From the IMG/VR virus record IMGVR_UViG_3300032225_000686: a stretch of 64,000 bases of DNA; one strand, given 5' to 3'. The stretch's first letter is position 1, and every line of letters begins with the position of its first letter. The notes beneath the pieces were generated by a model that was given only the letters and a program-made list of their open reading frames with translations, did no database searches and was not told where the DNA came from. Below, piece after piece: positions 394-53,605 of this stretch. The translations under genes and the position numbers were made by a program. Origin of the DNA: a virus (Duplodnaviria > Caudoviricetes).

Positions 394-608
394 TAGTTAT
401 TCCCCCGACTGTCTAGTTTGTTTAGTATGGTGTGTAGCATGGCTTTTAACTCTAGAACCTCTGTTTTTAGACTATTTATCTCTTCGTCCCTTGCCCTAAT
501 AGCCTTCTTTTTTGCCTTGTAGGCTTCTATTTCATCTTGATTGGTAAAGACCAACGCACTAGTATTCAGGTCTCTGTATATCGCCTCTCCCTTGACCTTT
601 AGGTTCAT
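393..608 (-). CDS. Small hypothetical coiled-coil protein
   Basis: 71 aa, coupled to both neighbours; C-terminal heptads ([16 protein letters not shown]). Small ORFs like this typically follow the DUF4815 gene in T4-like phages. Confidence 0.7.
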
Positions 609-5698: not shown

Positions 5699-8248
5699 TC
5701 AGAATTGGAAGAGGACTTTTATCTCTTCCCGTTGCTCTATGTTTCTGGTAATTGGTTGTGTGTTTTGTATGTAGGTCAGTTCGCCCGATCTATACTTCAG
5801 TTCACCTTCGTGGGTTATTGCCTCTATTTGGCATTGGGCGGTTTCGTCTTTGTTGTCCGTGAATGTGATTAGGCTATCTTCGCTAAAGATTCCCTGTGTT
5901 CCGCATAGCCTCAAGGTTCCGCTTGTAGCACCATCTACGGCAGTCCATTCAAGCACCAATCCCGAACCCTCTGCGGTTAGCCCCGCGTAACTCTTTACCA
6001 ATGAGTCTTGTTCGAAAGACTGAACCCCGAATGGGTTGGATAGAGAAGTAGAAACTGTAACTGTTGTTGTTTGATCGTATAGGGTTGGTGAATTTTTGGC
6101 TATCTCGCCTATTTCCACTACAACCGCTGTTCCTGTATTGTGGGCAGGTCTTCCCGCTGTTGCTCCAGTCAAACCGTATCTTGAAGGAATACTTGGTCGA
6201 AGATAGTAATCAACCTCTACCAATTTCTCAAATCTTGTGGGTAAGCCGGATGGTTCCTCAACATACAGAGTTGCTGATGTGTTAGTTCCAACTGTGGGTT
6301 CCCACGAATAAATCGAACCGGTGAAGTGTGAGTTATGAACATTTCTTTCCAAGTTACCGATACTTGCAACATACATTCCCGGATGGAAATCTTCGCCACC
6401 TGCAAGGAATGCTCCTGCTGTTCCGCCTAATTGGGGATCATAAACTGTCGCTGGGGTAACCTTAAGGCGAAGTAGTTCTCTGCCTTCTGTTCCTGCTATA
6501 GTTCTTTCAGACACATCTACGATATTGAAGTAGCCGCTATTTGAGCCTGTCACAGAAGAATACACTCTTCCTGTAGAGAGGAAGTTGCCGCCCGTAACGC
6601 CACTCACTATCAATTCTGATATTCCATACTTGTCAACACCAGACAAACCTGTTCCTGTTGGACCATTTCTCCAAGATACAATTTTGCCTGTGGCTTGACT
6701 GTAGGTTGCTCCTGATATTCCTCCTGTGGTTCCTTGAGTTAGGGTTCCGCCTTCAAGGAAAGAACCAGTTAGACCAATAGCACCGAGCCGTAGTCTTACC
6801 TGCTTGTTCTTTAGGAGAGGGTTCTTGAGAATACCAAACTGTCTATAATCGTTTGCGACCGATAGTGTGTTCTTTTCGGTTTGACTAAATTCAACTACGA
6901 TCATGATTGCTGCTGCTCCCAATTCTGCAACAGCATTTGAGCCATGTCCACCCGGAGGAGAGAATACGATTTCCGCAGTATCATTCAAAGATCCAACTCC
7001 AGTCAATCCTGTGGTGAATGTCAGACCCTTGATTACCTTTAGTTCCGCACGGGTATAATCTCTGCCTCCATCTATGACTTCGTAGGAGTCAACAAATGCT
7101 TGGTTATAGACATTCGTAGTATCACATCCTGTTGAACCCGAACTCAAAAGAGGACCAAACTTAAGACCGATGTCCGCTTCACCAAACTTGTTTAGTGTTG
7201 TTTCTACAGGGAAACCATCGCCTCCAATTTGAACATTCGGAACTATGGAGAATTTACTATCTCCTGACGAGAGACCAACAGTCAAAGGATAATCCAGAGT
7301 TACGGTTCCATAGTTGCCTGTGCTTGAGTAAGCATAGGAGTTGATGATTCTTCTTTGCCCTTCACCCGGACCATCGTCTATAGACAAGATAAGGTCATCA
7401 TAGAACCCATTTACACCAATCAGATAAGGACTGTACAATCTTACAGAGCCAGTATAGCCTGCTGCGTAATTCTGCTGAACAACATTGCTGTTATCCGGTC
7501 TCAAACAGTTGATGATTGTTAGATATGGCTTGTATTGTTCTTTGACCCCAACAAACGATATCTGCCCGTTTATTGCGCTCTGTTGAACATTCCATTGAAG
7601 AACCCTATCATCTGCGTTCATCTTCAAATACTGAACATACGATACTGGCATGTAGCCCTGAATTATGACTCTCTGATAGGGAGTAGATGATTGTAGGGTC
7701 TCGTCATATACAGTCTTTGTGAGGAACTTTCTCTGATCTTCTGGAATGAGATACATGAACTTCCAACGATAGCCATCAGCCAATTTACGGATTTCGGAAT
7801 CCGTGTGGGTTGGGGCTACAGTAGAAGCAACACCGTAATTGTTGTCTATGCACTTGTACACGCGAGTTTCATCAACAAGAACATAGAACTGTGAGGGATA
7901 GTCTTGGTCAAATAGTGCCGAGTAATCCCTATATGGCTGATAGACTGTGCCAAGTTTCCAATCAAAACGAGGTATAACCAACGAGATGTTGTCTTTGCTT
8001 ATTCTCTTTGCTGCTACAACTCCCTGCCAAAATTCAGTCTCTACCCTATCGCTATCCGCAGGAACAGGCACAGGGCGAGCATAGTTAGTTCCCGACAAAC
8101 CCGAATCTGTGGTTTCTGTTGGCCAAGGGGTCGTTTTGCCGATGGTCAGGAAGTAGTTTTCTGTAGACATCAATTCGATGTCTGCTAGCATTCTTTCTGC
8201 AAGATGCCGTCTGTAGTTTTGACGAATTGGTGAGCAAGATGAAGCCAT
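5699..8248 (-). CDS. gp8: Baseplate wedge subunit gp8
   Basis: FYVLVDETRVYKCIDNN, DGYRWKFMY, PPGGHGSNAVAELGA and C-terminal ITRNIEQREEIKVLFQF motifs; gp6-gp7-gp8 synteny. Confidence 0.85.
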   Translation of the reverse strand: MASSCSPIRQNYRRHLAERMLADIELMSTENYFLTIGKTTPWPTETTDSGLSGTNYARPVPVPADSDRVETEFWQGVVAAKRISKDNISLVIPRFDWKLGTVYQPYRDYSALFDQDYPSQFYVLVDETRVYKCIDNNYGVASTVAPTHTDSEIRKLADGYRWKFMYLIPEDQRKFLTKTVYDETLQSSTPYQRVIIQGYMPVSYVQYLKMNADDRVLQWNVQQSAINGQISFVGVKEQYKPYLTIINCLRPDNSNVVQQNYAAGYTGSVRLYSPYLIGVNGFYDDLILSIDDGPGEGQRRIINSYAYSSTGNYGTVTLDYPLTVGLSSGDSKFSIVPNVQIGGDGFPVETTLNKFGEADIGLKFGPLLSSGSTGCDTTNVYNQAFVDSYEVIDGGRDYTRAELKVIKGLTFTTGLTGVGSLNDTAEIVFSPPGGHGSNAVAELGAAAIMIVVEFSQTEKNTLSVANDYRQFGILKNPLLKNKQVRLRLGAIGLTGSFLEGGTLTQGTTGGISGATYSQATGKIVSWRNGPTGTGLSGVDKYGISELIVSGVTGGNFLSTGRVYSSVTGSNSGYFNIVDVSERTIAGTEGRELLRLKVTPATVYDPQLGGTAGAFLAGGEDFHPGMYVASIGNLERNVHNSHFTGSIYSWEPTVGTNTSATLYVEEPSGLPTRFEKLVEVDYYLRPSIPSRYGLTGATAGRPAHNTGTAVVVEIGEIAKNSPTLYDQTTTVTVSTSLSNPFGVQSFEQDSLVKSYAGLTAEGSGLVLEWTAVDGATSGTLRLCGTQGIFSEDSLITFTDNKDETAQCQIEAITHEGELKYRSGELTYIQNTQPITRNIEQREEIKVLFQF

Positions 8249-8261
8249 ATACTCTATCTAT

Positions 8262-11200
8262 TCAAGATGTTTTGTTGTAGTTAAAATCCATGACTTTGGT
8301 GGCTTCTGGAACGACAGCATTTGCCGAGTTACGGAACACCAACTTTAGTCTCATGAAGTGCCTTTTGCTGTGGTAGTCCTGTCCTCTGAATCTGAAGATT
8401 GGACCATTAGAATCAAAGTAGTTTGCTGTAAACATTTCCCCCGTGCTGTCGGGGTTTTCGAAATTGGGAAACGGAGAATTTATTGAAATTAGGGCAGATG
8501 TGGGGGAGAATGGGCCAGCATTCGCCAACATGTATTCCTTTTCGGGTCCGCTAGAATCTGAAGGCTTTACTGCATATAGTTCTGCCCATAAAGAGCGGAT
8601 ACCGTAGTAGCCGAGATAAACAAGAGTAGAAACCCCTTCTTGGGGAGTCCCCGTAATACCCCTGACTGCCTCAAGATTTAGTATTAGGTTCTTCCCGCCC
8701 GTAACTAAATTGGCAGGCTCTCTGTAATCGTAGTTGTTGGCAGCGGGGGCAGTAAGTCCATTCATTTTTTCCGCGTATACCTGTGGGAACGGAGGAGCCT
8801 TTACCTGATCGTTGGTGCAATTGAATTCCTTACCTACGGGCATACTGAAGAAGGCTCTAGCCGTGATCTTTCTAAAATCGGAATAGGCGATGTTATACCC
8901 AAGCAACTCACCGTTGGTTGTGGATTCGATACCCTGAACAACGGGGATATAATCCCAAGGAGCATCATAGAAATTTTCAGATGCTCCTGTGTAATCCCTA
9001 AACCCCAATAAAAGAAGAGCAAGATCTCCGTTATCAACTACTCCACTTCCGTCTGCATCTCCCAAAACAAATCCCGCAAATGTGGATGGAACTTCAGGGG
9101 AATTATTGAATTGAGGATACGCCGAATAAGTATCAAGATTGCCACTTGTTGGACTTGCGAATGCCCACTCTCTTGCAATAAAACTATTGAAGGTGCAGTA
9201 GAGTGGCATGACAATTTGGTTAGCCAAGTTGTATCGTATGGTTTCAAAGGAAGTCATATCTCCCGTATGCCCAACTATCTTCTTGTCTCCCAAGGGGAAC
9301 CAATACGAAGGGCATAGTGCAGTTGGTCCCGTAGCAGAGTAGAATTCTGCATTTTCTCCTGTTGCTCCTGTGTATCCCAAAACATAGTGCAAATACGGGG
9401 TCATTGCTCTTCGAAGTATTATTTGATAGTTATCGCCGTTAGTCGATCTGTCTTGATTGAAGATATTTGGAGATTTGCTGTATGGGGCAAATACCGCATC
9501 TTGACCTGTTGAACCCATCAAAGCATCAAGCAAAAATGATGGGTTCAGATCATTATAGAACCCATCTATCAAACGGCATCCATAATCAGAATCGTTGAGT
9601 ATATCTTCCCACACAGAGTAAAACACCGATGCTTTGATTGCTGAGTATTCGGGAAGATACTTTCTTGTATCAGATAAGGATGAGATGAAGAAGTTTGGTG
9701 TGTCCTTTCCATTTGTCTTATAAAGACGGCTGGATACCATTATCACAAACTTTCTCTCTATCCCTTCCCCAACAAATGTCTCATTTAGGTATTTGCTAGC
9801 ATCCAACAACCTCTTGAATTTAGTGATGCTCTTTTCGATTGATGGTGATCTAAAGTGGCAATCTAAATACATTACATCTTGTTCATGTATAAGTGCCTTG
9901 ACATTTTCTGCTGCCTCTATGACTAGAGCCTTTTGATTTTCGTTGGGTAGATTTTCTATTGATCGGTATAGGTCTTCGACTACATTTACAAAGTTTGGGA
10001 TTCGTGGCCAACCGTTATACCCAAATCTACACAGAGGATACTTCAGTTTAATCAACTTCAACACAACTACCATGTCAGATAGTATCTGATTCTTGTCTTC
10101 TATTTCTTGTTGGCCCGTAAACGATCCCGCGTATGTTGGCTGTATTTTTGACGGAAAGAAGATAGTGTTCAAATCAATCATCACATATTCTTGAGATTGG
10201 CTATTCAGTCCGTTTGATTGCAGCCAAGAATCCAAAGAATCTACTATTTGCTGTAGTGTTGGTGCTGTAGAAGCAGACAAAATCTCATCCGTAAATCGGT
10301 AACATAGTTTTCCGCCTATGAGTTTTGGTCCATAAAGTGGGCTTGTTTCTGATAAGAATGTTGAGAAGTCAACTGTGGTTGATGGTTGTGTGTTTCTAAA
10401 CTCAACAGTAAATGGGTCATACAGGAATGTTGGATTGCTCTCCGATCCTGTAGTCTCCTGCCTATACGCGGTAAGGCTTTGACTAGTACCCGCAGAAATG
10501 GCCGAAGATATTGGTCCGTAGAAAGGAACTAATGGATTGTAAGACAGCATCACATAACGCTCTCCTGATGTAAACCCTGTAGCCCATTCTTCTCGGTTTG
10601 CCGTTACTGATTCTGTCCATTCTCTCCAATATACGGTATGCCCACACGCGCCCGTGGGTGTGGGATAACCAAACACCGATGCTGCACCATGATCTGTTAG
10701 GAACTCATCCTTTAAATCATATGGTATTCTTGCAACAACAGGCTCGCTCATTCTTCTGTTTGGGTGTTGGTAAACAATCCAAAAAGGATCAGCATTTGCT
10801 TGTCCCGATAATCCCAATGGGGGATTGAATAAATCAGGTTCTTGATAAGAGACACCAGATGCAAATGGGTTACCTATAACAAAGAAGAAATCATTTAGTG
10901 AAGCGTCTGGGTGACTTTGTAAATACTGGGCATAGTCCTCTAAATCAACTTTGCCATTCGGCACTCCTCCCAAATCATATTGTATTGGTGGAGTATGCCT
11001 TGATCTATTATATCCGGATGGTTCTGATATCACCTCACCATCAACAACACTAACTTTTCTAAACCACTTGTTTAGATCGTCGTGTGTCAAGAAGGTATAT
11101 GGAAGATAGTGTCCTATTATAGGAACATCATATTCAATCAATGAGGTTGCTTGATTTAGATCGGTATAAGCACATCTCTTAAGAAGCACTTTGCCGTAGA

Positions 11201-12305
11201 ATGCCATTCCCGCCGGATTCAAAAGTCTTCTAATCACATCACGATATCGGTCTATCGTGATCTCGGTGAGTAGGACATACGAGAAGTCCTGATAGTAGCG
11301 GTTGTCTTGCATTACTTTGTTGCTGCTCAACCTACCGTCGTTATTCGCGTAATATCCGGAGTATTCTGCTTGTCCCTTGACTGTTACCGTTCCCGCAAAT
11401 CCCGTTCCGATTTCGGATTCCACCGTTATGGTTGGAGCAATCTTGTAGTTGATACCAAAATTGTCGATGGTGATTTTCTTGATACTTCCCGAAGAATCAA
11501 CTTCAGATACTCTCGCTGCTGCTTTAACTCCAGTATCGCTCCCCGATGGAGTAAAGACTACCGTATCGCCAACCTTATAGTTTGAGCCACCACTTGTTAT
11601 GGTGATCTCACCGATAACCGAAAACACTCGGTTTTCTTTGCGTAGGTTTCCATCTTGGTCGGCGAACTCAATTCCATAGTAGCCCGATTCGAACTCTCCA
11701 TTTATTCCACCCAAGGATAGTTCTGCAACATCGTAGATTCCAATTCTGTAGGTGGAAACATCTAGAACTCTTCCGCTAGCGATAATCTCGCCTTCGTTGT
11801 TCTTTTGAATCACGCTTGTCCCTAGAGAATCGTATATTCTCGTCCCTAGAGCATTAGATAACTTGATGGTTTTGCGAAGAATCCATTTACCATCGGATAG
11901 TTTTAGGATGTCCTTCTTTGGGTAATAGAACTCTACTGCGGTGTCATAAAGGATACGGAATAGAAAATCGTAAGTCTTTTCCGTACCCTTGGCTTTGTAG
12001 AAACTTCGAATGTTCTTTACTAGTTTGGTTGTGTCGAGCAGGGTCTTGTCATCTGTTATGGCTAGAGTCTCAGGGAACTCAAACAAGAACTCTTTCTTGA
12101 ACTTACCCACAAACTCATCCATAGTCTGATCTATATCCACTACCTCTTTTAGTCGTTTTGGGGAACGAAGATAGGTGGTGTCTTTATCCATCCATTCGTA
12201 ATACGCGGTTAGGAATGCTGTCAATGATGGGTGGTCCACCCTGACAAACTCAGGAACCTGCCCATTTACGAACGGTGAGACTGGATTTTTGTTCTGATCT
12301 AGCAT
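8262..12305 (-). CDS. gp7: Baseplate wedge initiator gp7-like, with large C-terminal insertions
   Basis: QVPEFVRVDHP..FLTAYYEW, IRSFYKAKGTEKTYDFLFRILY and MQDNRYYQDFSYVL motifs; between gp6 and gp8. Confidence 0.8.
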   Translation of the reverse strand: MLDQNKNPVSPFVNGQVPEFVRVDHPSLTAFLTAYYEWMDKDTTYLRSPKRLKEVVDIDQTMDEFVGKFKKEFLFEFPETLAITDDKTLLDTTKLVKNIRSFYKAKGTEKTYDFLFRILYDTAVEFYYPKKDILKLSDGKWILRKTIKLSNALGTRIYDSLGTSVIQKNNEGEIIASGRVLDVSTYRIGIYDVAELSLGGINGEFESGYYGIEFADQDGNLRKENRVFSVIGEITITSGGSNYKVGDTVVFTPSGSDTGVKAAARVSEVDSSGSIKKITIDNFGINYKIAPTITVESEIGTGFAGTVTVKGQAEYSGYYANNDGRLSSNKVMQDNRYYQDFSYVLLTEITIDRYRDVIRRLLNPAGMAFYGKVLLKRCAYTDLNQATSLIEYDVPIIGHYLPYTFLTHDDLNKWFRKVSVVDGEVISEPSGYNRSRHTPPIQYDLGGVPNGKVDLEDYAQYLQSHPDASLNDFFFVIGNPFASGVSYQEPDLFNPPLGLSGQANADPFWIVYQHPNRRMSEPVVARIPYDLKDEFLTDHGAASVFGYPTPTGACGHTVYWREWTESVTANREEWATGFTSGERYVMLSYNPLVPFYGPISSAISAGTSQSLTAYRQETTGSESNPTFLYDPFTVEFRNTQPSTTVDFSTFLSETSPLYGPKLIGGKLCYRFTDEILSASTAPTLQQIVDSLDSWLQSNGLNSQSQEYVMIDLNTIFFPSKIQPTYAGSFTGQQEIEDKNQILSDMVVVLKLIKLKYPLCRFGYNGWPRIPNFVNVVEDLYRSIENLPNENQKALVIEAAENVKALIHEQDVMYLDCHFRSPSIEKSITKFKRLLDASKYLNETFVGEGIERKFVIMVSSRLYKTNGKDTPNFFISSLSDTRKYLPEYSAIKASVFYSVWEDILNDSDYGCRLIDGFYNDLNPSFLLDALMGSTGQDAVFAPYSKSPNIFNQDRSTNGDNYQIILRRAMTPYLHYVLGYTGATGENAEFYSATGPTALCPSYWFPLGDKKIVGHTGDMTSFETIRYNLANQIVMPLYCTFNSFIAREWAFASPTSGNLDTYSAYPQFNNSPEVPSTFAGFVLGDADGSGVVDNGDLALLLLGFRDYTGASENFYDAPWDYIPVVQGIESTTNGELLGYNIAYSDFRKITARAFFSMPVGKEFNCTNDQVKAPPFPQVYAEKMNGLTAPAANNYDYREPANLVTGGKNLILNLEAVRGITGTPQEGVSTLVYLGYYGIRSLWAELYAVKPSDSSGPEKEYMLANAGPFSPTSALISINSPFPNFENPDSTGEMFTANYFDSNGPIFRFRGQDYHSKRHFMRLKLVFRNSANAVVPEATKVMDFNYNKTS
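10641..10664. repeat. GC-rich CGCGCCCGY motif island
   Basis: CCCACACGCGCCCGTGGGTGTGGG. Confidence 0.75.
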
Positions 12306-33597: not shown

Positions 33598-33602
33598 GAT
33601 CG

Positions 33603-33610
33603 TATAAATA
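33603..33610 (+). promoter_or_regulatory. Late promoter TATAAATA
   Basis: Exact consensus upstream of the 33638-35453 cluster that includes the glycosyltransferase. Confidence 0.8.
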
Positions 33611-33637: not shown

Positions 33638-34069
33638 ATGAAACTACTCGTATCTGAAATACTAGCCAAAGTAGCAACAGCGGAAACAGAGGCGAAGAAG
33701 ATCAACCTCCTTCGTGAGAACTACTCTCCTGCATTGGAAGATGTCCTTCATTGGGCATATGATCCAAACATCAAGTTCTTTACAAATAAGGTTCCGCCGT
33801 ACACCCCCGATCAGTCTCCTGATGGATTGGCGATGACCACATTTTATTCGGAACACAAGAGACTCTACTTGTTCCTAGAACAAACAAAAATTGATGCTGC
33901 CCGAAAGAACATTTTGCTCATTCAAATGCTTGAGGCTTTGAGTGGAGCAGAGTCAAAGATTCTAGAGAACATCCTTCTCAAGAACATCCCCGAGGTCTCA
34001 AAAGATCTTGCAGAGAAGGCTTATCCGGGTCTACTTCAAAGACCTATTCGTATCCCTGTGGAGGCTTAA
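33638..34069 (+). CDS. Hypothetical protein (DUF6433-like)
   Basis: LLVSEILAKV..KKINLLR..AYDPNIKF..PPY..LYLF..LIQMLEAL; SD AAGGAG. Confidence 0.75.
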   Translation: MKLLVSEILAKVATAETEAKKINLLRENYSPALEDVLHWAYDPNIKFFTNKVPPYTPDQSPDGLAMTTFYSEHKRLYLFLEQTKIDAARKNILLIQMLEALSGAESKILENILLKNIPEVSKDLAEKAYPGLLQRPIRIPVEA

Positions 34070-34289: not shown

Positions 34290-35453
34290 ATGCCTGACAC
34301 TACTACGCCAAAGAAGAAGATTGCTCTTTGCATGATTGTGAAGAATGAGGCTCATGTAATTGAGCGTTGTTTGACTTCGGTTCTCCCTGTCATTGATAAA
34401 TGGGTTATCTGTGATACGGGATCGACCGATGGAACTCAAGATAAAATTAAGAAGTTCTTTGAAAACGCGGGCATTCCCGGGGAACTACATGAGCGTACTT
34501 GGGTTGACTTCGGTACTAATAGAAGCGAAGTCCTAGAGTTTGCTCACAAGCAAACCGATATAGACTACTGCTTGATGATTGACTCCGATGAGGTTTTGGT
34601 TTTTGACCCCGGATTTGATCCTGACAAGTTCAAGGAAAGTCTTACAGCGGACCTGTACAATGTGTTTGCCTTCTATGGCAACACTCGTTACCACCGTCCA
34701 CAGTTGACTAGCAACAAGTTGCGATACTACTACCGTGGTGTTCTACATGAATATGTTGATTGCCATGACGAGATCAAGACCCGCGACTTTGCCCGTGGCT
34801 TCACAAACACTCCAATTCAGGACGGTGCTCGTTCTCAAAATCCAGACAAGTACAAGAAGGATGCCGAAGTATTTGAGAATGCTCTTGCTAGTGGTAAGGT
34901 AGAAGAGAAGGATTTCAACCGTTACCACTTCTATCTTGCTCAGTCGTATCGTGACTCACAGCAATGGGAAAAGTCTCTTGAGGCTTATCTCAAGAGAGCC
35001 TCTCTTGGTGGTTGGAACGAAGAAATCTTCTACAGCCTATTCCAAGTTGGCAGAATTCGTGAAATTCTAAAGCATGGAGTGGACGATATTGTTGCTTCGT
35101 ATTTCCAAGCATATCAGGCCGCTCCGTGGAGAGCCGAAAGCCTGTGGGCTGCGGCTAGAGTTTGTCGTATTATGAATAGATTTGACCAAGCCTATCGTTT
35201 TGCCAAATTGGCTATGTCGGTCAGATGCCCAGAAGGTGCTTTGTTTGTTGCCCAACCAGTCTACGATTGGATGATTTTGGACGAATACGCCATCTCTGCT
35301 TATTGGACCGAACGATATAAGGAATCTCGTATGGCTTGTCAGAAACTACTGGCTGAAAACAAGTTCCCTGAAGATCAGAAGCAGAGAATTGAAGCCAACC
35401 TAAAGTTTGCTACCGACAAGATCATGGAAGAGTCGGGAATGTTAGTCGGGTAA
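34290..35453 (+). CDS. Glycosyltransferase family 2 with C-terminal TPR repeats (GmaR/flagellin O-glycosyltransferase-like)
   Basis: IALCMIVKNEAHVIERCL..VICDTGSTDGT, WVDFGTNR, DxD motif MIDSDE, YRGVLHE; TPR-like helices RYHFYLAQSYRD..AYLKRA and AYQAAPWRAE. Confidence 0.92.
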   Translation: MPDTTTPKKKIALCMIVKNEAHVIERCLTSVLPVIDKWVICDTGSTDGTQDKIKKFFENAGIPGELHERTWVDFGTNRSEVLEFAHKQTDIDYCLMIDSDEVLVFDPGFDPDKFKESLTADLYNVFAFYGNTRYHRPQLTSNKLRYYYRGVLHEYVDCHDEIKTRDFARGFTNTPIQDGARSQNPDKYKKDAEVFENALASGKVEEKDFNRYHFYLAQSYRDSQQWEKSLEAYLKRASLGGWNEEIFYSLFQVGRIREILKHGVDDIVASYFQAYQAAPWRAESLWAAARVCRIMNRFDQAYRFAKLAMSVRCPEGALFVAQPVYDWMILDEYAISAYWTERYKESRMACQKLLAENKFPEDQKQRIEANLKFATDKIMEESGMLVG

Positions 35454-35474
35454 TCTTCGCAGGCTCTAGGTGCT

Positions 35475-35482
35475 ACTAAATA
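35475..35482 (+). promoter_or_regulatory. Late promoter ACTAAATA
   Basis: Upstream of the tail fibre gene. Confidence 0.7.
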
Positions 35483-35511
35483 GTCCCTAGAGATAGCGAG
35501 GGTATACCAAC

Positions 35512-38500
35512 ATGGCATTTTCTACTTCCCGTGGCGGGGTTCAGATTATACAACAGCCTCCTCAAACGACGCTGTTAAAAAAATACACGGATCTTAACCA
35601 ATCCTTACAGAACTCCCAAAATTACGGAGCCGCTGTATACATTGACGATGACGGTAGCCTAAACCTAGCAAAGGCTAATATTTGGCAAAACGCCCAAACT
35701 GTCGGAGTTGTTCAGGGTGGGTATACCGCAAACGGCATGTGGCATTTGGAGATTGTCTACCAAGGTGAGATTACTTTCCCTAACGGTGCTACTTCCACAT
35801 TCCTAAAGTTTCCTCTCGTTACTGGAGATACCTATTACCTATCCACAGGATTGAGTGGTGGTCTCACAGGAGCACCCCCATCGACATCAACGGTTGTTCA
35901 ACCAATGATGGTGGCTACAGATTCCTATTCGGGTATCGTAGTTAATGGTCTTCCTGCTGCATCAGTACTTCTTGGTAATACACAGGTTTCAATTTTTAGT
36001 CCTGTGGGTAGCGTTATGCCGTTCATGGGAACTCCCGACAAAGTGCCGGGTAATTACCTGTTATGCGTTGGGGATTCTTTCCCCAAAGGAACAACCAGTT
36101 CAGATACCTACAACGATCTATATTCCTCTATTCGTGAGAAGTATAGCATATTAGGATTGATTCGTTCAGGAACAACAGGAACTACGGGATATGTAAGATT
36201 TGACGGCTCTGTGGATGATGCTGCGCTTATTTCCGCAGGAAGTCCCGGAAGCACAAAGAATCACTCTCTAGCAAACAACCAAGTTTACAAGATGGTTTGG
36301 GGAACTAAAGAAGCAGTAGTGAAGGTATACTCTGCTACAGGTGCATCAACCGATGTAACTTTCCAATTCCTCAAAGGTATAACAGGATGGGCTGCGGGTG
36401 CTTCATCATTCTCTGGACTCGTTGATGGAACAGAAATCTACCTGAAGTCTCTAAAGACAGCAGAGGTTTCCGGATATACCTCCGACAATTTCTTTGTTCC
36501 TGATCTTCGTGGAAGAGCCTTAATGGGTGCAGGCAAGGGAAGAGGACTAACTGCACACACCTTGGGCGAGATGGGAGGAGAAGAGACTCATCTATTGACT
36601 TCTTCAGAAATACCCTCACACAGCCACGAAATTCCAATCAGAAGTAATGTTGCGGGTGGAGCAGGATCAATTCCTCCTGCACTACAGCAAACCATAGGAT
36701 CAGGAGTTACTGCTTCTGGTGTAAACAGCGTAAACACCAATGTATGGCAGGCAAATAAAGCACTATCCTTACCCACGGGTGGAGCAGAAGCACATCAAAA
36801 TCTACCACCATACATTTCCGCAAATTGGATCATTCGCTACAAATCAAACAAGGGCAATCCGGGAGTTGAAGTCGGTCCTCAAGGTCCGGCTGGCGCACAG
36901 GGAATAACAGGGTTAAACGGAGGAACTGGACCAACAGGGTCTACAGGATATTCTCTCGGAACACTATCTTATCGTTATAGTTCAAATTCGACAGTATCTT
37001 CTGGATATTTCTACTACGATACCGTAGCCAAAATACTTTACATAAATTCCACAGATATCGCGTCAAACGAATTATCTCCTCTCTTTGATACTTGGGGATT
37101 GCCTACTTCATTCACGAAGGGGACTCTTTATATCAGAGATGCCGTGACTCTGAATGCAATTAGAGTGCTTGGAATTGTAACAGCACCCGCAAAAGTCGGT
37201 AGTGTCTATAGAATGAATGCTACTGTAGATTTGGGTGGTTCTCTCAGTTTTACAAGTGGAAGATTGTATAATTTGATTTGGGTTCCTTCGGGTAATAAGG
37301 GAACTGATGGAGTCAGCATTACTGGTCCAACAGGAATTGGAACTGTTGGAGCAACAGGAAATACAGGTGCTACCGGTCCAACGGGAGCCTGTGTTTGCCC
37401 AGTAGATGCTTGGGGGGACTCTAGTGTAAAAACTGTATATTTGAATGTAAATGGAGTTGTTGAGCAAGGAGGGGGTAATGTATTCCCCAACTATTTCTCA
37501 GGAGAAGCGGGCAATCCAACAAATTGGTTAAGTTGGACACAATCGACTCAAGGTAAATACACAGCAAAAAGATCATCTCCTATTAATCTCTCCAGACTAA
37601 TATCAAACAGCGTAGATACATCTTTCCAAGTGAAGAGACCATGTGGTGGAAACGATTGTGATGATTCTAGCCAAACAGTATCTCTACTATATCAAACAGC
37701 AGCATCCAACACTCTAGAAAAGATAAAAGCGGTTGGGCTAGTGTTATCTTCAGGACAGTACACCATAAACAATCCTATTTTGGCTTCTAATGGTAACTAC
37801 TTCATCTGTGCTGAATCCGGATCATATCAACAAATAGACCCCGATGGACTTTCCGCATCAAACTCAGGAAATACCATAACAATTGATATCACATCAGACA
37901 TTTCAAATGTTGCTGTTGGTGATTATCTGAGTCTAACATCGGAGACATTCGCTGGAGGAATTAGTGGTTTTACTGGCTCAGACACATATACAGGATCTAA
38001 TTCCTTGTGTGGTCTGTATACCGTAACATCAATAGACACAAATAACGGTATTGTTAGAGCAAATGGAATAGTAGCAAATGGTGCTTCAGGTGCTTCGGTT
38101 TTCTCTGGCTATATTCCTTCTGGCAATCTTGGTCACTACAATGTATACAAAACATCAGTTGTATTCAACAATACTGACGGGTTTATAGTAGACCCCAGCG
38201 CAACATTGACCTTGGGCAAAACTTATGGTGGTACAGGAAATCCGTTTGTCATAGTCTTTGCTAACGGTACAAGTGGTGGTGCTGCGTCAAAGGCGGTTAT
38301 CTGTGATGGTGGTAAAGTAAATATGGAAGCAGGAATGGCCATTTACGGAACACCCATAAATGGTGCGGGTATTTATAGCAATGGTGGAAGAGTTGTTGCC
38401 GATAGAGTAGTAGCATCAAAAAATGGTGTTGCGGTGTATGCAGAAAACTCATCAGTAACACTAAAGTCCCCCACACTAGCACAAAATACCACAGCAATAG

Positions 38501-38946
38501 TTGCTAATAGAAATGGTCTAATAGATGTGGTGGGTTTATCAGGAGCAACATATGACTACACGGTTATTGCAAACAATAGAACAGCAGGAGTTGTTTCTGC
38601 AACAACCGTCGATGTATCTGACCCGAGATTCCATCTGTTGATAAGTGACTATCAGCAAGGAATACTTGCTACAAATCAAGCATCAGTTTCGATAGCACCC
38701 GGAACAACATCATCATACTCAAGTGTAATTTCCGGATATTTGCCTGTAAGTGGATTAGAAACTTCCGAACCAAAACCTGTAGTTATACGAATGGTGGATT
38801 CAAACTATAGGATAGTATCGAATAGGCTTGCAGGATTGCTTTCTGTAACTGGAGGATTCCTTGCTTCGTCAACATCTCTCACCGGAAATACCACCACAAT
38901 AAGCGGTCCTACTAGGGTATACCCCAACCAAGATTTAAGTCTATGA
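35512..38946 (+). CDS. Tail fibre: collar domain, collagen-like GxT segments, beta-helix-like C-terminus
   Basis: PVGSVMPF..YLLCVG, FVPDLRGR..GGEETHLLT..IPSHSH..HQNLPPY; GPQGPAGAQGITG and GPTG..GATGNTGATGPTG. Confidence 0.85.
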   Translation: MAFSTSRGGVQIIQQPPQTTLLKKYTDLNQSLQNSQNYGAAVYIDDDGSLNLAKANIWQNAQTVGVVQGGYTANGMWHLEIVYQGEITFPNGATSTFLKFPLVTGDTYYLSTGLSGGLTGAPPSTSTVVQPMMVATDSYSGIVVNGLPAASVLLGNTQVSIFSPVGSVMPFMGTPDKVPGNYLLCVGDSFPKGTTSSDTYNDLYSSIREKYSILGLIRSGTTGTTGYVRFDGSVDDAALISAGSPGSTKNHSLANNQVYKMVWGTKEAVVKVYSATGASTDVTFQFLKGITGWAAGASSFSGLVDGTEIYLKSLKTAEVSGYTSDNFFVPDLRGRALMGAGKGRGLTAHTLGEMGGEETHLLTSSEIPSHSHEIPIRSNVAGGAGSIPPALQQTIGSGVTASGVNSVNTNVWQANKALSLPTGGAEAHQNLPPYISANWIIRYKSNKGNPGVEVGPQGPAGAQGITGLNGGTGPTGSTGYSLGTLSYRYSSNSTVSSGYFYYDTVAKILYINSTDIASNELSPLFDTWGLPTSFTKGTLYIRDAVTLNAIRVLGIVTAPAKVGSVYRMNATVDLGGSLSFTSGRLYNLIWVPSGNKGTDGVSITGPTGIGTVGATGNTGATGPTGACVCPVDAWGDSSVKTVYLNVNGVVEQGGGNVFPNYFSGEAGNPTNWLSWTQSTQGKYTAKRSSPINLSRLISNSVDTSFQVKRPCGGNDCDDSSQTVSLLYQTAASNTLEKIKAVGLVLSSGQYTINNPILASNGNYFICAESGSYQQIDPDGLSASNSGNTITIDITSDISNVAVGDYLSLTSETFAGGISGFTGSDTYTGSNSLCGLYTVTSIDTNNGIVRANGIVANGASGASVFSGYIPSGNLGHYNVYKTSVVFNNTDGFIVDPSATLTLGKTYGGTGNPFVIVFANGTSGGAASKAVICDGGKVNMEAGMAIYGTPINGAGIYSNGGRVVADRVVASKNGVAVYAENSSVTLKSPTLAQNTTAIVANRNGLIDVVGLSGATYDYTVIANNRTAGVVSATTVDVSDPRFHLLISDYQQGILATNQASVSIAPGTTSSYSSVISGYLPVSGLETSEPKPVVIRMVDSNYRIVSNRLAGLLSVTGGFLASSTSLTGNTTTISGPTRVYPNQDLSL

Positions 38947-40267: not shown

Positions 40268-41155
40268 GTGGCACTCAACCCATATTTCAATAAGTTCAAG
40301 AATCTACCTGAACAGAATCTAATTGAAGACCTCACTATTGAGGCTATCAAGATTCACGGTATGGAAATGTTTTACTTGCCGAGGGAAATGATTCGCAAGG
40401 ATGACTTCTTTGGCGAAGCACCTTACTCAAGATTCTCAACCTTCAAGATGATTGAAATGTATATGGATACAACTACAGCATTTGAAGGTGGTGATATGTT
40501 CACCAAGTTTGGCTTCGAAATTAGGGACAGCGTGAAATTTACTGTTTCTAGAAAACGATTCAAGAGAGAGACTGGCATGGATAGACCGATGGAAGGAGAC
40601 TTGCTATTCCTGCCTCTGAACAACGGTTTGTTTGAAATCAAGTTCGTAGAACATGAGAATCCTTTCTACCAACTAGGAAAGAGACTAACTTTCCAATTAA
40701 CATGTGAACTGTTCCAATACAGCGAGGAAAAGATGGAAACCGGTATTCCCGAGATAGATGTTGTGGAAGAGGAAGCCGCGTACAGTATCAACCTCACTAT
40801 AGGAGCAACAAATGGAACAGGCACTTTTGGAAAGGGCGATCTCGTATACCAATTCGCAAATGGCTCCCCAACGGGATCTATGGGAGAAGCGAATGCAACA
40901 GCAACCATTCTATCCTATGACACGGCAAGCCCGAACATTCTTGTACTTACTGATATCGTTGGTAGTTGGAGCATCACGGGTGGCACAGGTCAGACACTAT
41001 ATGTGACCAAGAGTGACAATACTTTATATGCGACAGTTTCCGGTATTGGCGATAAGTTTGGAGTCCTTATTGATGAAAACAACAAGGGCATTCAAGACGA
41101 AGCAAATACCTTCCTTGACTTTACTGAAAGCCATCCGTTTGGAGACCCAACCTAA
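40268..41155 (+). CDS. gp14: Neck protein gp14
   Basis: EQNLIEDLTIEAIKIHG, KFGFEIRD, RPMEGDL, FEIKFVEHENPFYQLGK, LDFTESHPFG. Confidence 0.95.
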   Translation: MALNPYFNKFKNLPEQNLIEDLTIEAIKIHGMEMFYLPREMIRKDDFFGEAPYSRFSTFKMIEMYMDTTTAFEGGDMFTKFGFEIRDSVKFTVSRKRFKRETGMDRPMEGDLLFLPLNNGLFEIKFVEHENPFYQLGKRLTFQLTCELFQYSEEKMETGIPEIDVVEEEAAYSINLTIGATNGTGTFGKGDLVYQFANGSPTGSMGEANATATILSYDTASPNILVLTDIVGSWSITGGTGQTLYVTKSDNTLYATVSGIGDKFGVLIDENNKGIQDEANTFLDFTESHPFGDPT

Positions 41156-41928
41156 TGTTGGAACACTTCTACCATCAAACTATCCGTAAAGTTGTTGTAG
41201 CGTTTGGATCACTTTTCAACAACATCTACATCTCTCGTTTAGATGATGCGGGAGATGAGGTAGAGCGTATTAAGGTTCCTATCTCTTATGGGCCGCAGCA
41301 GAAGTTCATACGCAGGCTCGCCCGCATAGGAACAGACTTTGATGCCGCTAAAGTCAAGATTGAGAACTATATTCCTCGTCTATCGTTTGAGATTCAGTCA
41401 CTAACATATGACCCGAATCGTAAACTCAACACAATGAACAGGACTCTCCTGTACAAAGATGCGAGCACACTAAAAACTCGTTATGAGCGTGTGCCATATA
41501 ACTTAGACTTGTCTTTGGGAATAATGACAAAGAACACCGAAGATGCTCTGCAAATTGTAGAGCAGATACTTCCTTACTTCCAACCAGAATACACAATCAC
41601 GATCAAAATGAATGACATGGACCCGAAGGTAAACATACCTATCGTGTTCAAAGCATGTACTATCGGTGAAGGAGATGATGGTTCGTATGGCAACTACGAT
41701 CTACGCAAGTTGACCTATATGACCCTCTCCTTCACCGCACGGGTTTACTTGTATGGACCAATCCGCGAGCAGGGAGTCATCTTGGACACTCAAGTTGGTC
41801 TCCGAGATTCCCTCAAGGGCGGTCTTACTGCTGCAACTATAAATGTATATCCAAACACAGGAATTACAGCAGGTTCATATGTTCCCGCAGGACCGACAGC
41901 ACAGACACAAATAATAGAAAAGGCTTGA
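41155..41928 (+). CDS. gp15: Tail sheath stabiliser gp15
   Basis: FYHQTIRKVVVAFGSLFNNI, KVPISYGPQQKF, PRLSFE, QIVEQILPYFQP. Confidence 0.95.
   Translation: MLEHFYHQTIRKVVVAFGSLFNNIYISRLDDAGDEVERIKVPISYGPQQKFIRRLARIGTDFDAAKVKIENYIPRLSFEIQSLTYDPNRKLNTMNRTLLYKDASTLKTRYERVPYNLDLSLGIMTKNTEDALQIVEQILPYFQPEYTITIKMNDMDPKVNIPIVFKACTIGEGDDGSYGNYDLRKLTYMTLSFTARVYLYGPIREQGVILDTQVGLRDSLKGGLTAATINVYPNTGITAGSYVPAGPTAQTQIIEKA
41307..41330. repeat. GC-rich motif copy
   Basis: CATACGCAGGCTCGCCCGCATAGG. Confidence 0.5.
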
Positions 41929-49814: not shown

Positions 49815-49815
49815 T

Positions 49816-50301
49816 ATGCCAATTACACCACCTCCGATATCACCTCCAAACCACAGTACAGATCAGCCACCGGGAGTACAAACATCAATGGGAAGCAGAT
49901 TAGAATACCTAGTAAGATCAAAAAACCGAGTTGTAGTTCACTACAATGCTGACACGGCGGGTGGTGGTGCTACATTCGGAATGGACCCAACGATATTTGG
50001 TCCTACCGCTTGGGGAGAATTTACAACAACAGGATTGACCTACAACTCCGCTGCTATCTCAAGAATAGTGTGGGGAACTGGTGGTGTAACAGGAACAGTA
50101 GATTTAGTGTTCCTTGGTGCAACAGGGTTTACCGCATTTTCTGTTCCCGCAGGTGGAGCAGGTGACCTCAATCTAGAAAGAATGACCATACCAAATCTTG
50201 CTCTTGGTGCAACCGGTCTCTTTGCAATTCAAAACAATCTTGCAGGTACAGCATCAAAGAATGCAACCGTCATGCTTGAATTTGTGACTCGTAATGTCTA
50301 A
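49816..50301 (+). CDS. Small beta-rich head-cluster protein, rich in GxT motifs (possible capsid decoration protein)
   Basis: Just before gp21; GATF, GPTA, GLTY, GVTG, GATG twice, GFTA. ATG 49816 preferred over TTG 49804. Confidence 0.6.
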   Translation: MPITPPPISPPNHSTDQPPGVQTSMGSRLEYLVRSKNRVVVHYNADTAGGGATFGMDPTIFGPTAWGEFTTTGLTYNSAAISRIVWGTGGVTGTVDLVFLGATGFTAFSVPAGGAGDLNLERMTIPNLALGATGLFAIQNNLAGTASKNATVMLEFVTRNV

Positions 50302-52192: not shown

Positions 52193-53605
52193 ATGGAACT
52201 AACAATTTCAGAAGCACTTCAGAGTAAGTGGAAGCCGGTGCTAGAGCATCCGGAACTTCCCGAAATCTCTGACCCATACCGCAAGGCGGTTACAACGATT
52301 CTTTTAGAGAATCAGCAGCAGTATCTCCGCGAAGACGGTCCTGCTAACATCTCAGGCAACGATGGCGGTCTAGCCTCACCAGCGGGCATGGCTCGTTGGG
52401 ATCCGATCCTCATCTCGCTCGTTCGTCGTTCAATGCCAAACCTAATGGCATACGATGTCTGCGGCGTTCAGCCGATGAGTGGTCCAACAGGACTTATCTT
52501 TGCTCTACGCAGTCGCTACAACAACCAGTTCGGTGACGAAGCACTATTCCAAGAAGCCAACAGCCGCTTCTCAGGTGCATCGGCAGGCGGATTGACTGGT
52601 GTAGGTTACGGTCAGACCGCTACCTTTGGTGGCGTAACCGCAACCGATACTGATCCTTTCTACGCAGGCATAGGATCAGCCAGTTCAACTGGTAGTTTCT
52701 TCGGCTTGGGTGGTGGTACAGGCGATCCGTTCCTCGGAACCGCAATGGCAACCAATGCAGGCGAATCACTTGGTTATCCAAACGGTTCACAGGCTGCTGG
52801 TTCACAGTTTGCACAGATGGCATTCAGCATTGAGAAGGCAACCGTAAGTGCTCAGACCCGCGCATTGAAGGCTGAGTACACGATGGAACTCGCTCAAGAC
52901 TTGAAGGCTATTCACGGTCTTGATGCAGAGACAGAACTCGCCAACATTTTGTCAAGCGAAATCCTTGCCGAAATCAACCGCGAAGTCGTTCGTCGCATCT
53001 ATGTGTCAGCCAAGTTGGGTGCTCGCAGCGGTCTAACTCAGACCACAGGCGTGTTCGACTTGAATGTTGACTCCAACGGTCGTTGGTCAGTCGAGAAGTT
53101 CAAGGGCTTGCTCTTCCAAATTGAGCGTGAGTGCAACGCAATCGCCAAGGAAACCCGTCGTGGCAAGGGTAACTTCATCGTCTGCTCGGCAGATGTTGCA
53201 AGTGCTCTAAGCATGGCAGGCGTACTTGACTATGCTCCAGCATTGTCAACCAACCTCAATGTGGACGATACGGGCAACACATTCGCAGGCGTTCTAAATG
53301 GCCGCCTCCGCGTGTACATCGACCCATACGCTTCACAGACAGCAGCACATGAGTTCTTCTGCGTCGGCTATAAGGGTTCAAGCCCATACGATGCAGGTCT
53401 CTTCTACTGCCCATATGTACCTCTACAGATGGTTCGTGCAGTTGGTGAGAACTCATTCCAGCCGAAGATCGGATTCAAGACCCGTTACGGTCTAATCCAC
53501 AACCCCTTCGTGCTAAACGCAAACGGCGCAGTAACAAGCGACATCGAAGCAACCGTTCGTCGCAATATGTACTACCGCATCGTCAAGGTAACCAACCTCT
53601 TCTGA
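52193..53605 (+). CDS. gp23: Major capsid protein gp23
   Basis: KWKPVLEH, LVRRSMPNL.AYDVCGVQPMSGPTGLIFA, RALKAEYTMELAQDLKAIHGLDAE, FQPKIGFKTRYG. Confidence 0.99.
   Translation: MELTISEALQSKWKPVLEHPELPEISDPYRKAVTTILLENQQQYLREDGPANISGNDGGLASPAGMARWDPILISLVRRSMPNLMAYDVCGVQPMSGPTGLIFALRSRYNNQFGDEALFQEANSRFSGASAGGLTGVGYGQTATFGGVTATDTDPFYAGIGSASSTGSFFGLGGGTGDPFLGTAMATNAGESLGYPNGSQAAGSQFAQMAFSIEKATVSAQTRALKAEYTMELAQDLKAIHGLDAETELANILSSEILAEINREVVRRIYVSAKLGARSGLTQTTGVFDLNVDSNGRWSVEKFKGLLFQIERECNAIAKETRRGKGNFIVCSADVASALSMAGVLDYAPALSTNLNVDDTGNTFAGVLNGRLRVYIDPYASQTAAHEFFCVGYKGSSPYDAGLFYCPYVPLQMVRAVGENSFQPKIGFKTRYGLIHNPFVLNANGAVTSDIEATVRRNMYYRIVKVTNLF

Follow-up and report, generated by a model that had tools for sequence, protein, structure and literature searches.

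Why does a T4-like phage carry a putative glycosyltransferase gene next to a fibre gene with collagen-like (GxT)n segments, and why does the short peptide G-x-T-(G/A) recur in so many of its other virion proteins? In this work, the question was addressed on a stretch of 64,000 nucleotides of viral DNA (IMG/VR record IMGVR_UViG_3300032225_000686), the whole of which is referred to here as the window. The first-pass annotation, made from the sequence alone, had proposed that a GT2-TPR transferase glycosylates a collagen-derived sequon spread over the exposed surfaces of head, sheath, baseplate and fibres. The motif distribution and the gene arrangement on which this proposal was based were confirmed, apart from the two details corrected below. 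The interpretation was only partly supported, because the modification of the isolated sites remains an inference in the absence of any glycan data. The gene encodes a relative of the enzyme that puts sugars on the Gly-X-Thr collagen repeats of Clostridioides difficile spores, and the peptide accepted by that enzyme is strongly over-represented on the outer head, sheath, baseplate and fibre proteins of the phage, which suggests, but does not prove, a sugar-coated virion.

Gene arrangement and motif distribution

The glycosyltransferase (GT) gene and the fibre gene lie where the first-pass annotation had placed them (Table 1). However, the fibre protein has only two short collagen stretches, and a third, uninterrupted (GxT)n protein starts at the left edge of the window. 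The GT gene had been described as sitting behind a late promoter, but the perfect promoter does not lie directly before the GT gene and is situated about 690 nt upstream, ahead of two small ORFs in the same orientation. The other correction concerns gp14, which had been listed among the motif-bearing proteins and is not enriched (1 site against 0.35 expected).

Table 1. Features of the window discussed in the text (positions are those of the whole stretch; sites are G-x-T-(G/A), observed against expected where both are given)
Position	Strand	Feature	Sites	Observations
33602..33609	+	Perfect T4-type late promoter TATAAATA		Read directly from the sequence; heads the unit DUF6433 gene, small ORF, GT, fibre
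33638..34069	+	DUF6433 gene, first gene of the late unit that contains the GT		Pfam PF20025, E 2e-19
34290..35453	+	SgtA-family protein O-glycosyltransferase (assigned by homology)		GT-A domain at aa about 10-180, with DTGSTD and DxD at 98-100; TPR-like helical domain at aa 187-381; no TM segment
35512..38946	+	Fibre protein with two short GxT-rich collagen stretches (about aa 455-480 and 595-628)	18 against 2.9	10 isolated sites outside collagen runs, counted on the window proteins; weak tail-collar and gp10_C hits
1..393	-	Start of a collagen-like protein		Cys-rich N-terminus followed by uninterrupted (G-x-T)n; runs off the window
605..5689	-	VrlC/DUF4815-like large structural protein	17 against 2.5	phrog_358; orthologues annotated VrlC in pelagiphages
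5699..8248	-	gp8-like baseplate wedge protein	11 against 1.4	phrog_438
8262..12305	-	gp7-like baseplate wedge protein	7 against 0.9	phrog_17744; all sites in the C-terminal variable part
41155..41928	+	gp15-like tail sheath stabiliser	3	phrog_227; sites in the C-terminal 35 residues
44158..45870	+	Tail sheath gp18	5	phrog_23; four sites in the part (aa 110-283) that does not align with T4 gp18
49816..50301	+	Small late protein with a predicted jelly-roll-like beta-sandwich fold	5	All sites in turns or loops; its own ATAAATA just upstream
52193..53605	+	Major capsid protein gp23	5	phrog_138; four sites clustered at aa 133-177 in the variable insertion; GPTG97 universal in the family

In an unbiased scan of all three-residue patterns (a.bc, ab.c and abc) over the ORFs of the window, G.TG was the top-ranked pattern, with 53 occurrences observed against 10.1 expected (p 2e-21), and G.TA came next with 26 against 8.1. 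When collagen runs were removed, G.TG was found 44 times against 9.6 and G.TA 26 times against 7.8, and these ranked 1 and 2 of 3360 patterns. Furthermore, the excess was kept in global shuffles of each protein and in local shuffles of 15 or 30 residues for the VrlC/DUF4815-like protein, the gp8-like and gp7-like proteins, the fibre, gp15, the sheath, the ORF at 49804-50301 and the major capsid protein, all with p at most 0.0065. The signal acts at protein level, since the corresponding DNA pattern occurs 79 times in the sense reading frame against 3-20 in other frames and uses mixed synonymous codons. The excess is also Thr-specific. Gly at position -2 is 1.77x, and Gly or Ala at position +1 are 1.75x and 1.49x, around Thr but not around Ser.

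On the other hand, no motifs were found in gp6, gp25, gp53, PAAR, gp5 (14.8% Gly), gp48, gp54, tube (11% Gly), portal, protease, scaffold, terminase, gp32 or gp59, and the excess is confined to outer virion proteins. The outer orthologue set gave 48 sites against 6.6 expected, while the inner and other set gave 1 against 3.6. Within the outer proteins, the sites lie in regions of lower conservation, in the stretches that do not align, or align only weakly, with T4 sheath and capsid, and in turns of the predicted beta-sandwich of the small protein.

The glycosyltransferase and its family

Pfam identified a GT2 domain at aa 14-103 of the GT, whereas the sequence-level TPR hit was weak. The predicted fold (AF2, pLDDT 95.8) confirmed a helical TPR-like C-terminal domain. 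The best PDB sequence hits were all protein or peptide glycosyltransferases, namely GmaR (7e-8), SunS (4e-4) and ThuS, and the top Foldseek matches of the model over its full length were SunS/ThuS (E 2e-14), followed by TPR proteins. The residues D42, TGS, D47, D98-x-D100 and H153-E154 are invariant in 28 homologues. No TM segment was found, so the enzyme is taken to be soluble.

The characterised enzyme of C. difficile was reached with the sgtA primer from PMC7157674, which retrieved sgtA-bclA3 loci. BLASTP of the GT against the 358-aa SgtA gave E 9e-22, and hhalign gave 99.8% and E 2e-29 over 305 columns that span both domains, so that the two proteins are full-length homologues. SgtA adds beta-O-GlcNAc to Thr of GPT/GAT repeats, and it converts peptides with a single GPTG or a single GATG by 28-39% (PMC7157674). 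However, the identity to SgtA is only 28%, and donor and acceptor specificity may therefore differ.

In bacteria, the family is coupled to (Gly-X-Thr)n collagen-like genes. GxT-rich runs were found in 17 of 22 bacterial GT loci, against 1 of 40 loci situated 100 kb away in the same genomes (Fisher p 6e-10; 2839 against 6 triplets). The same holds in the jumbo phage Tunturi_5 and in the IMG/VR lineages L065 and L069.

Comparison with related phages

By comparing outer-protein orthologues, an excess of 7.3x, 5.4x and 5.4x was observed in the three GT-bearing genomes (the window and the relatives G002 and G003, respectively), against 1.1x, 1.4x and 2.2x in the complete GT-lacking genomes Mosig, HTVC008M and S-8S56. 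The baseplate modules of HTVC008M, S-8S55 and P-TIM40 were at about 1.0x. The sites turn over between lineages. Only about a quarter of the window's sites align with a motif in G002 or G003, yet each of those genomes keeps its own excess. The GT is present in all 30 clade loci that reach at least 5 kb upstream of gp13. In sub-lineages such as G003, however, it sits directly before gp13 with no fibre gene between them. G003 also has a glycan island next to uvsX, which comprises a GDP-mannose 4,6-dehydratase, a GT2, two GT15 and an FkbM methyltransferase.

Not all comparisons favour a link between the enzyme and the dispersed sites. The association is essentially one clade-level event, and no clade member without the GT was found among these loci to serve as a close control. 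Tunturi_5, an independent GT carrier, has the GxT fibre, but isolated G.TG occurs there at only 0.62x expectation, so the enzyme does not by itself entail a dispersed sequon. Cyanophage S-8S56 lacks the GT, yet its 2.2x outer-set excess, although mild, has a p of 1e-3. Loci of other T4-like phages centred on the major capsid protein show G.TG at 2.5x, partly from conserved structural GxTG such as GPTG97. Moreover, at short distance (comparison with G001), motif Thr is not more conserved than other Thr (91% against 85%, p 0.38).

Proposed protein O-glycosylation system

All of the computational expectations set out in the first-pass annotation came out in its favour: the enrichment goes beyond composition, the sites lie in poorly conserved or non-alignable regions and in predicted turns, and relatives without the GT do not keep the motif density. 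In addition, the enzyme is assigned as a protein or peptide glycosyltransferase. We hypothesize that the GT is a soluble, late-expressed protein O-glycosyltransferase of the SgtA family, with a GT-A catalytic domain and a TPR-like substrate-binding domain. During virion assembly in the cytoplasm, it would transfer a sugar from a nucleotide sugar, metal-dependently via its DxD motif, to the Thr hydroxyl of G-x-T-(G/A). By analogy, this sugar would be a HexNAc. In this view, the ancestral and most secure substrates are the (Gly-X-Thr)n collagen-like stretches of the phage's fibres. In this phage clade, the same minimal acceptor would have been multiplied as isolated copies in variable, exposed parts of the outer virion proteins, that is, the VrlC-like protein, gp8, gp7, the gp15 C-terminus, the outer domains of the sheath, the capsid insertion and the small beta-sandwich protein. 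It would mean that head, sheath, baseplate and fibres are all glycosylated. Other glycosyltransferases and sugar-nucleotide enzymes encoded elsewhere in genomes of this clade could extend the first sugar.

The analysis itself established the family and predicted fold of the enzyme, the genomic coupling of its family to GxT collagen genes, the motif excess, the restriction of this excess to outer proteins and its specificity to this lineage. It is by inference from sequence alone that we propose that the enzyme is active and acts on the fibres, that the isolated sites are modified, which sugar is used, and that the coat serves shielding, solubility or adsorption. The assignment of the enzyme is held with fair confidence, and its action on the GxT fibres is likely. 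Its action on the dispersed sites is about as likely as not, and the explanation as a whole, dispersed sites included, is only slightly more probable than not.

Alternative explanations

The alternative that survives best, although we consider it unlikely, is that the GT glycosylates only the collagen-like (GxT)n stretches of the fibres, as SgtA does with BclA3, and that the isolated copies in other virion proteins are not substrates. They would then reflect a lineage-specific structural preference for tight turns in beta-rich decoration domains, as G-x-T-G in turns could have a purely structural role, or short remnants of collagen-type triplets. In agreement with this, the coupling across the family is to long GxT runs and not to dispersed motifs, and Tunturi_5 has the enzyme and the fibre without a dispersed excess. 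Some motifs come as two or three in-phase triplets, such as GYTGATG, GTTGTTG and GSTAGLTG, all five sites of the small protein sit in beta-turns, and a mild excess exists without the GT in S-8S56 and in loci of the major capsid protein. On the other hand, orthologous proteins of the same fold in GT-lacking relatives show no excess, for example VrlC with 3 sites against 2.9 and 5 against 2.8, and this is not explained by a fold-based preference. The excess is also Thr-specific and absent from Gly-rich inner proteins. Since SgtA accepts single GPTG or GATG units in short peptides, exposed single sites would be hard to keep unmodified.

It is less likely that the motif excess is real and selected, but for something other than this GT. 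Such a function could be another Thr-directed modification, for instance phosphorylation by the late P-loop kinase-like gene at 59831-60748, or a binding or adhesion function of Gly-flanked Thr on the virion surface. The GT is tied to the isolated sites only by co-occurrence in one clade, and other putative late enzymes of unknown role are present in the window. However, the only enzyme family with a demonstrated G-x-T-G acceptor is the one encoded here, its genomic partner across bacteria is GxT, and no alternative enzyme has any link to this motif.

Finally, it is very unlikely that the GT is unrelated to the motif and acts on a non-virion acceptor such as host envelope polysaccharide or LPS, which is the usual reading of glycosyltransferases in pelagimyophages and the published interpretation for those of related marine myophages (PMC7029224) and agrees with the automatic JGI name 'glycosyltransferase involved in cell wall biosynthesis', or on phage DNA, because the enzyme is soluble, has the glycocin-GT and SgtA architecture with a TPR domain, lies in a late structural unit, is conserved as a core gene beside the neck genes and belongs to a family coupled to GxT proteins, while the T4 DNA glucosyltransferases are of a different fold (GT-B).

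Comparison with known systems

The closest characterised system is SgtA with BclA3, a collagen-like glycoprotein of the C. difficile spore exosporium. Both enzymes combine a GT-A and a TPR domain (358 aa in SgtA against 387 aa here), both genes lie next to a GxT collagen-like gene, and the SgtA acceptors GPTG and GATG, of which single sites suffice in vitro (PMC7157674), are identical to the motif of the window. In contrast to SgtA, the enzyme described here is encoded by a T4-like phage in a late structural unit, and its proposed substrates, inferred from sequence, include non-collagen virion proteins with dispersed single sites. The glycocin glycosyltransferases SunS and ThuS (PDB 7msn, 7msk) are the best structural matches over the whole length, with a GT-A and a TPR-like domain, at 13-16% identity. 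They modify a residue of a peptide, which sits in a Gly-rich loop, but their S- or O-glycosylation is directed to small bacteriocin precursors and not to structural proteins. Listeria GmaR, a flagellin O-GlcNAc transferase and anti-repressor, is the best PDB sequence hit for the GT-A domain and shares the DTGSTD and DxD motifs. It has TPR repeats (PMC9638930). GmaR O-glycosylates Ser/Thr of flagellin, a surface polymer subunit, but it is larger (637 aa), has a regulatory function, and no GxT sequon is known for it.

Phage-encoded glycosyltransferases are also reported to decorate virion proteins in mycobacteriophages (Freeman et al., 2023, as summarised in PMC12619734). The glycans there sit on C-terminal extensions of capsid and tail-tube subunits, whereas in the phage studied here the tube has no motif and the putative sites are internal and dispersed, with a defined short sequon. 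In Bacillus anthracis BclA, GxT collagen repeats are O-glycosylated on Thr, and chloroviruses and mimiviruses encode autonomous machinery for the glycosylation of their fibrils or capsids (reviewed in PMC9614988 and PMC5408694), with different enzymes and in different hosts.

Genomic context and distribution of the G-x-T-[GA] motif

The window comprises the structural and replication core of a T4-like myovirus, whose major capsid protein (MCP) is about 60% identical to those of Pelagibacter phage Mosig and of marine cyanophages of the Kyanoviridae. PHROG and Pfam scans identified a VrlC/DUF4815-like protein, followed by gp8, gp7, gp6, gp25, a PAAR protein, gp5, gp48, gp54, and the tape measure, then gp32, gp59, gp13, gp14, gp15, and terminase, and finally sheath, tube, portal, protease, scaffold, and MCP. 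A nucleotide search of the region against GenBank phages returned no match, whereas metagenomes hold a very large clade of relatives. The glycosyltransferase (GT) gene is directly followed by a fibre gene with two short GxT-rich collagen stretches, and a further collagen-like protein with 10 Cys in its first 51 residues, followed by uninterrupted GGT/GPT/GST triplets, starts at the left edge of the window and runs off it. The coordinates of these and other features are collected in the table below.

Coordinates of the features discussed in the text
Sequence	Coordinates	Strand	Feature
Window	1-393	-	Start of the Cys-rich collagen-like protein
Window	605-5689		VrlC/DUF4815-like protein
Window	33602-33609		Perfect late promoter TATAAATA
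Window	34290-35453		GT (GT2 domain at aa 14-103)
Window	35512-38946		Fibre, 1144 aa
Window	45907-46539		Tail tube
Window	49816-50301 (also delimited as 49797-50301)	+	Small late protein with a predicted jelly-roll-like fold
Window	53681-54226 and 54181-54762	+	Two adjacent, overlapping ORFs, both matching the tail-tube PHROG (phrog_45) in addition to the tube gene
Bradyrhizobium chromosome CP145948.1 (locus L293)	L293:3291-8966	-	Open frame of 1891 aa, probably a giant unannotated collagen-like glycoprotein
GT-bearing relative G003 (locus L089)	L089:4166-9653 = G003 about 137.2-142.7 kb	+	Glycan island next to uvsX
GT-bearing relative G003 (loci L090/L091)	165699-174224	+	Protein of 2841 aa with internal repeats
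Jumbo phage Tunturi_5, PP885688.1 (locus L172)	L172:11010-12014		Locus of the GT homologue

In this work, 61 non-overlapping ORFs were called and the copies of G-x-T-[GA] were counted, which showed that eight proteins hold nearly all of them. The excess remained significant in each of these eight proteins when the sequences were shuffled globally or within blocks of 30 or 15 residues. In an unbiased scan of all patterns of three specified residues (a.bc, ab.c, abc, and some two-residue shapes), G.TG ranked first, with 53 copies observed against 10.1 expected (p 2e-21), and G.TA was third. After removal of every run of four or more G-x-y triplets, the two patterns ranked first and second of 3360, with 44 against 9.6 and 26 against 7.8 copies, respectively. 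The signal is specific to Thr, since around Thr in the eight proteins Gly is enriched at position -2 (1.77x) and Gly or Ala at position +1 (1.75x and 1.49x), while there is no Gly excess at -2 around Ser. On the other hand, Gly-rich inner proteins, such as gp5 with 14.8% Gly and the tube with 11%, contain no copies. The observation made in the first-pass annotation was thus confirmed, with two corrections. It had listed gp14 among the proteins carrying the motif, but gp14 is not enriched, and it had placed the GT behind a late promoter, but the perfect late promoter lies ahead of two small ORFs in the same orientation and not directly before the GT.

The glycosyltransferase and its relationship to SgtA

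The GT contains an N-terminal GT-A (GT2) domain (PF00535, E 1e-8), whereas Pfam gives only a faint TPR hit. A sequence search of the PDB returned only protein or peptide glycosyltransferases, namely Listeria GmaR (7e-8), SunS, and a ThuS-like enzyme. A search of 1.8 billion cluster representatives found 3045 clusters at E up to 1e-30, many of which are fused in larger multi-GT proteins. In 28 aligned homologues, the nucleotide-binding DTGSTD motif (D42/TGS/D47), D98-x-D100, and H153-E154 are invariant. The AF2 model is confident (pLDDT 95.8) and shows a Rossmann-like beta/alpha GT-A domain followed by ten helices at aa 187-381. The best full-length Foldseek matches are the glycocin glycosyltransferases SunS and ThuS (E 2e-14), followed by TPR proteins including CTPR and the TPR domain of OGT, and the C-terminal domain also matches the helical domain of SunS. 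The maximum Kyte-Doolittle value over 19 residues is 1.24, so there is no transmembrane segment and the enzyme is predicted to be soluble.

The literature search led to SgtA of C. difficile, a 358-aa GT-A plus TPR enzyme encoded immediately upstream of bclA3. It adds beta-O-GlcNAc from UDP-GlcNAc (Mn2+) to Thr in the GPT/GAT collagen repeats of BclA3, and peptides holding a single GPTG or a single GATG are converted by 28-39% in 24 h (PMC7157674). The coding part of the published sgtA primer retrieved eight metagenome loci. In one of them (L423) it starts a 358-aa ORF, and the following ORF begins with the N-terminal SML7 peptide of BclA3 reported in that paper and continues as GPTGATG repeats, which verified the identity of SgtA. 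The GT of the window matches this SgtA with E 9e-22 at 28% identity over 246 residues (BLASTP), and the profile of the phage and bacterial family aligns to it with 99.8% probability (hhalign, E 2e-29) over 305 columns that cover both domains. The phage enzyme is therefore a member of the SgtA family.

Genomic partners of the enzyme family

By examining the neighborhood of bacterial homologues, we found a recurrent association with GxT-rich collagen-like genes. In the Bradyrhizobium chromosome, the homologue lies about 1 kb from an open frame that is 29% Gly and 28% Thr, holds 487 GxT[GA] copies, and falls in a 5.5-kb stretch with no called gene; this frame is divergent from a 1882-aa multi-domain GT (GT2, GT25, GDSL lipase, TPR). 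In a metagenomic contig, the homologue abuts a 602-aa ORF with 69 copies. A scan of one genome per species returned 80 loci from Alpha-, Beta-, and Gammaproteobacteria, Streptomyces, Chlamydiae, Polyangiaceae, Holophagaceae, and others. Of the 55 loci of at least 15 kb, 32 contain a run of six or more G-x-y triplets with at least half Thr at Y. In a matched control, 17 of 22 GT loci have such a run, against 1 of 40 loci taken 100 kb away in the same genomes (Fisher p 6e-10; 2839 against 6 triplets). The same holds in phages, since in Tunturi_5 the GT (40% identity) lies 4 kb from a tail fibre with 66 GxTG triplets, and in the IMG/VR lineages L065 and L069 it is flanked by GxT collagen ORFs. 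In Tunturi_5, the GT homologue is preceded by a gene annotated as a nucleotidyltransferase and followed on the other strand by five ORFs annotated as hypothetical (four of about 280 aa and one of about 105 aa) before the GxT fibre. However, the association is weaker in sub-lineages of the phage clade in which the GT abuts gp13, and on three IMG/VR contigs binned as giant-virus MAGs (L070-L072, one labelled GVMAG) a 34%-identical homologue is fused in a 698-aa ORF with no GxT runs within 10 kb. The family-wide coupling to GxT genes supports the inference that Thr of GxT is the acceptor of the family. The GT is also carried by huge phages (LR7565xx).

Occurrence of the dispersed motif in relatives with and without the enzyme

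The complete genomes of Mosig, HTVC008M, and S-8S56 have no homologue of the GT, and their proteome-wide non-collagen G.TG ratios are 1.0, 0.78, and 1.29, respectively. In the GT-bearing near-complete relatives G002 and G003, the ratios are 2.5 (rank 2 of 10488) and 2.15. In G003, a protein with a GLSVTG-like repeat unit, probably a repeat-built fibre or adhesin, makes S.TG, VTG, and GLS the top patterns of the proteome. The counts for orthologues of the seven outer proteins are compared in the table below.

Observed and expected G-x-T-[GA] copies in orthologues of the seven outer proteins
Genome	GT	Outer set (observed / expected)	Ratio
Window	yes	48 / 6.6	7.3x
G002	yes	28 / 5.2	5.4x
G003	yes	34 / 6.2	5.4x
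Mosig	no	9 / 8.2	1.1x
HTVC008M	no	10 / 7.2	1.4x
S-8S56 (OQ504984.1)	no	20 / 8.9	2.2x

The inner and other set (gp6, gp5, tube, portal, gp48, gp54, terminase, scaffold, and gp13) is at or below 1.4x in every genome, and the baseplate modules of HTVC008M, S-8S55, and P-TIM40 are at 1.09, 0.96, and 0.8. Only about a quarter of the sites of the window align with a motif in G002 or G003, yet each of these genomes keeps its own excess. Density is therefore maintained while positions turn over. In all seven alignments the sites lie in regions less conserved than the protein average, and they also lie in the sheath segment that does not align with T4 gp18 and in the weakly aligned MCP insertion. In the small late protein, all five sites are in turns or loops of the predicted beta-sandwich. 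This protein has ATAAATA directly upstream and a Pro-rich N-terminus and is conserved only within the clade; the PHROG search gave no match, and the fold search gave only weak jelly-roll or cupin matches (TM 0.3-0.4), so a role as a decoration protein is no more than a possibility.

A dependence of the excess on presence of the enzyme is supported by three GT-bearing against three GT-lacking genomes, but this comparison sets a single clade against its outgroups. A search for clade members lacking the GT found none, since all 30 clade loci that reach at least 5 kb upstream of gp13 carry it. Moreover, Tunturi_5 is a counter-example, because it has the GT and a GxT fibre but its isolated motif is not enriched (0.62x). 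The mild excess of S-8S56, a cyanophage whose collagen run has Lys and Gln at Y, and that of MCP-centred loci of other T4-like phages occur without an SgtA-family GT, and part of this excess comes from conserved structural sites such as GPTG97. Against the nearest relative, G001, motif Thr is not significantly more conserved than other Thr. Furthermore, the Thr content at the collagen Y position does not co-vary cleanly, as it is 79% in the window but 20% in G002 and 24% in G003. A generic property of T4-like outer proteins or of their folds was rejected as a full explanation of the excess, because Mosig, HTVC008M, S-8S55, and P-TIM40 are at about 1x, although the mild baseline in S-8S56 and the MCP loci does exist. 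A DNA-level motif, such as a methylation or recombination site, was rejected because the corresponding DNA pattern is found 79 times in the sense reading frame against 3-20 in other frames and uses mixed synonymous codons.

Proposed function and comparison with known systems

The assignment of the GT as an SgtA-family protein O-glycosyltransferase acting on Thr in GxT is well supported and likely to be correct. The family membership, the motif excess, and its restriction to the outer proteins follow directly from the analysis, whereas the sugar transfer itself, the acceptor, and the modification of any virion protein are inferred from sequence alone. That the dispersed GxT(G/A) sites on head, sheath, and baseplate would also be glycosylated is a coherent inference, but one that could equally well prove right or wrong. 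The proposal of the first-pass annotation, that the enzyme glycosylates such a sequon over the whole virion, is accordingly supported in part. In the relative G003, the glycan island encodes GDP-mannose 4,6-dehydratase (E 4e-115), a GT2-like protein, two GT15 (Kre2/Mnt1-type alpha-1,2-mannosyltransferase) homologues, and an FkbM methyltransferase. GT15 is mainly a fungal protein-glycan family, which would make it unusual in a phage. This block is compatible with the building of a larger glycan, although on present evidence it cannot be linked to a particular acceptor.

We tentatively hypothesize that a very abundant, uncultured clade of T4-like phages has turned the collagen GxT acceptor of an SgtA-type enzyme into a dispersed minimal O-glycosylation sequon, which it maintains, with rapid site turnover, on every outward-facing virion protein. 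It would mean that these phages possess a glycan shield with a readable sequence code. In this still more speculative than established view, SgtA-type GTs paired with (Gly-X-Thr)n proteins would form a widespread, largely unannotated surface-glycoprotein system across Proteobacteria, Actinobacteria, Chlamydiae, Myxococcota, and phages. If the reading is right, glycosylation sites on a T4-like virion could be predicted from sequence, and glycan shielding, adsorption, and particle stability would become directly testable by Thr-to-Ala changes or deletion of the GT. The clade is very common in metagenomes, with thousands of GT homologues at over 65% identity, and the trait could therefore matter ecologically. 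The strong coupling of the family to GxT collagen-like genes in many bacterial phyla also assigns a likely function to thousands of enzymes annotated as "cell wall biosynthesis" glycosyltransferases, and it points to large collagen-like ORFs, at least one of which was missed by gene callers.

To our knowledge, virion glycosylation in phages is so far documented only for mycobacteriophages, and without a sequon. In that system the glycans are reported on C-terminal Ser/Thr-rich extensions of capsid and tail-tube subunits (as cited in PMC12619734), whereas in the window the tube has no motif and the MCP sites lie at aa 133-177 and not at the C-terminus. This is a different layout, so the resemblance to the mycobacteriophage system would be in function only. 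Both SgtA with BclA3 and the mycobacteriophage system are already known, and what is new here is the phage setting of an SgtA-family enzyme together with a defined and dispersed putative sequon.
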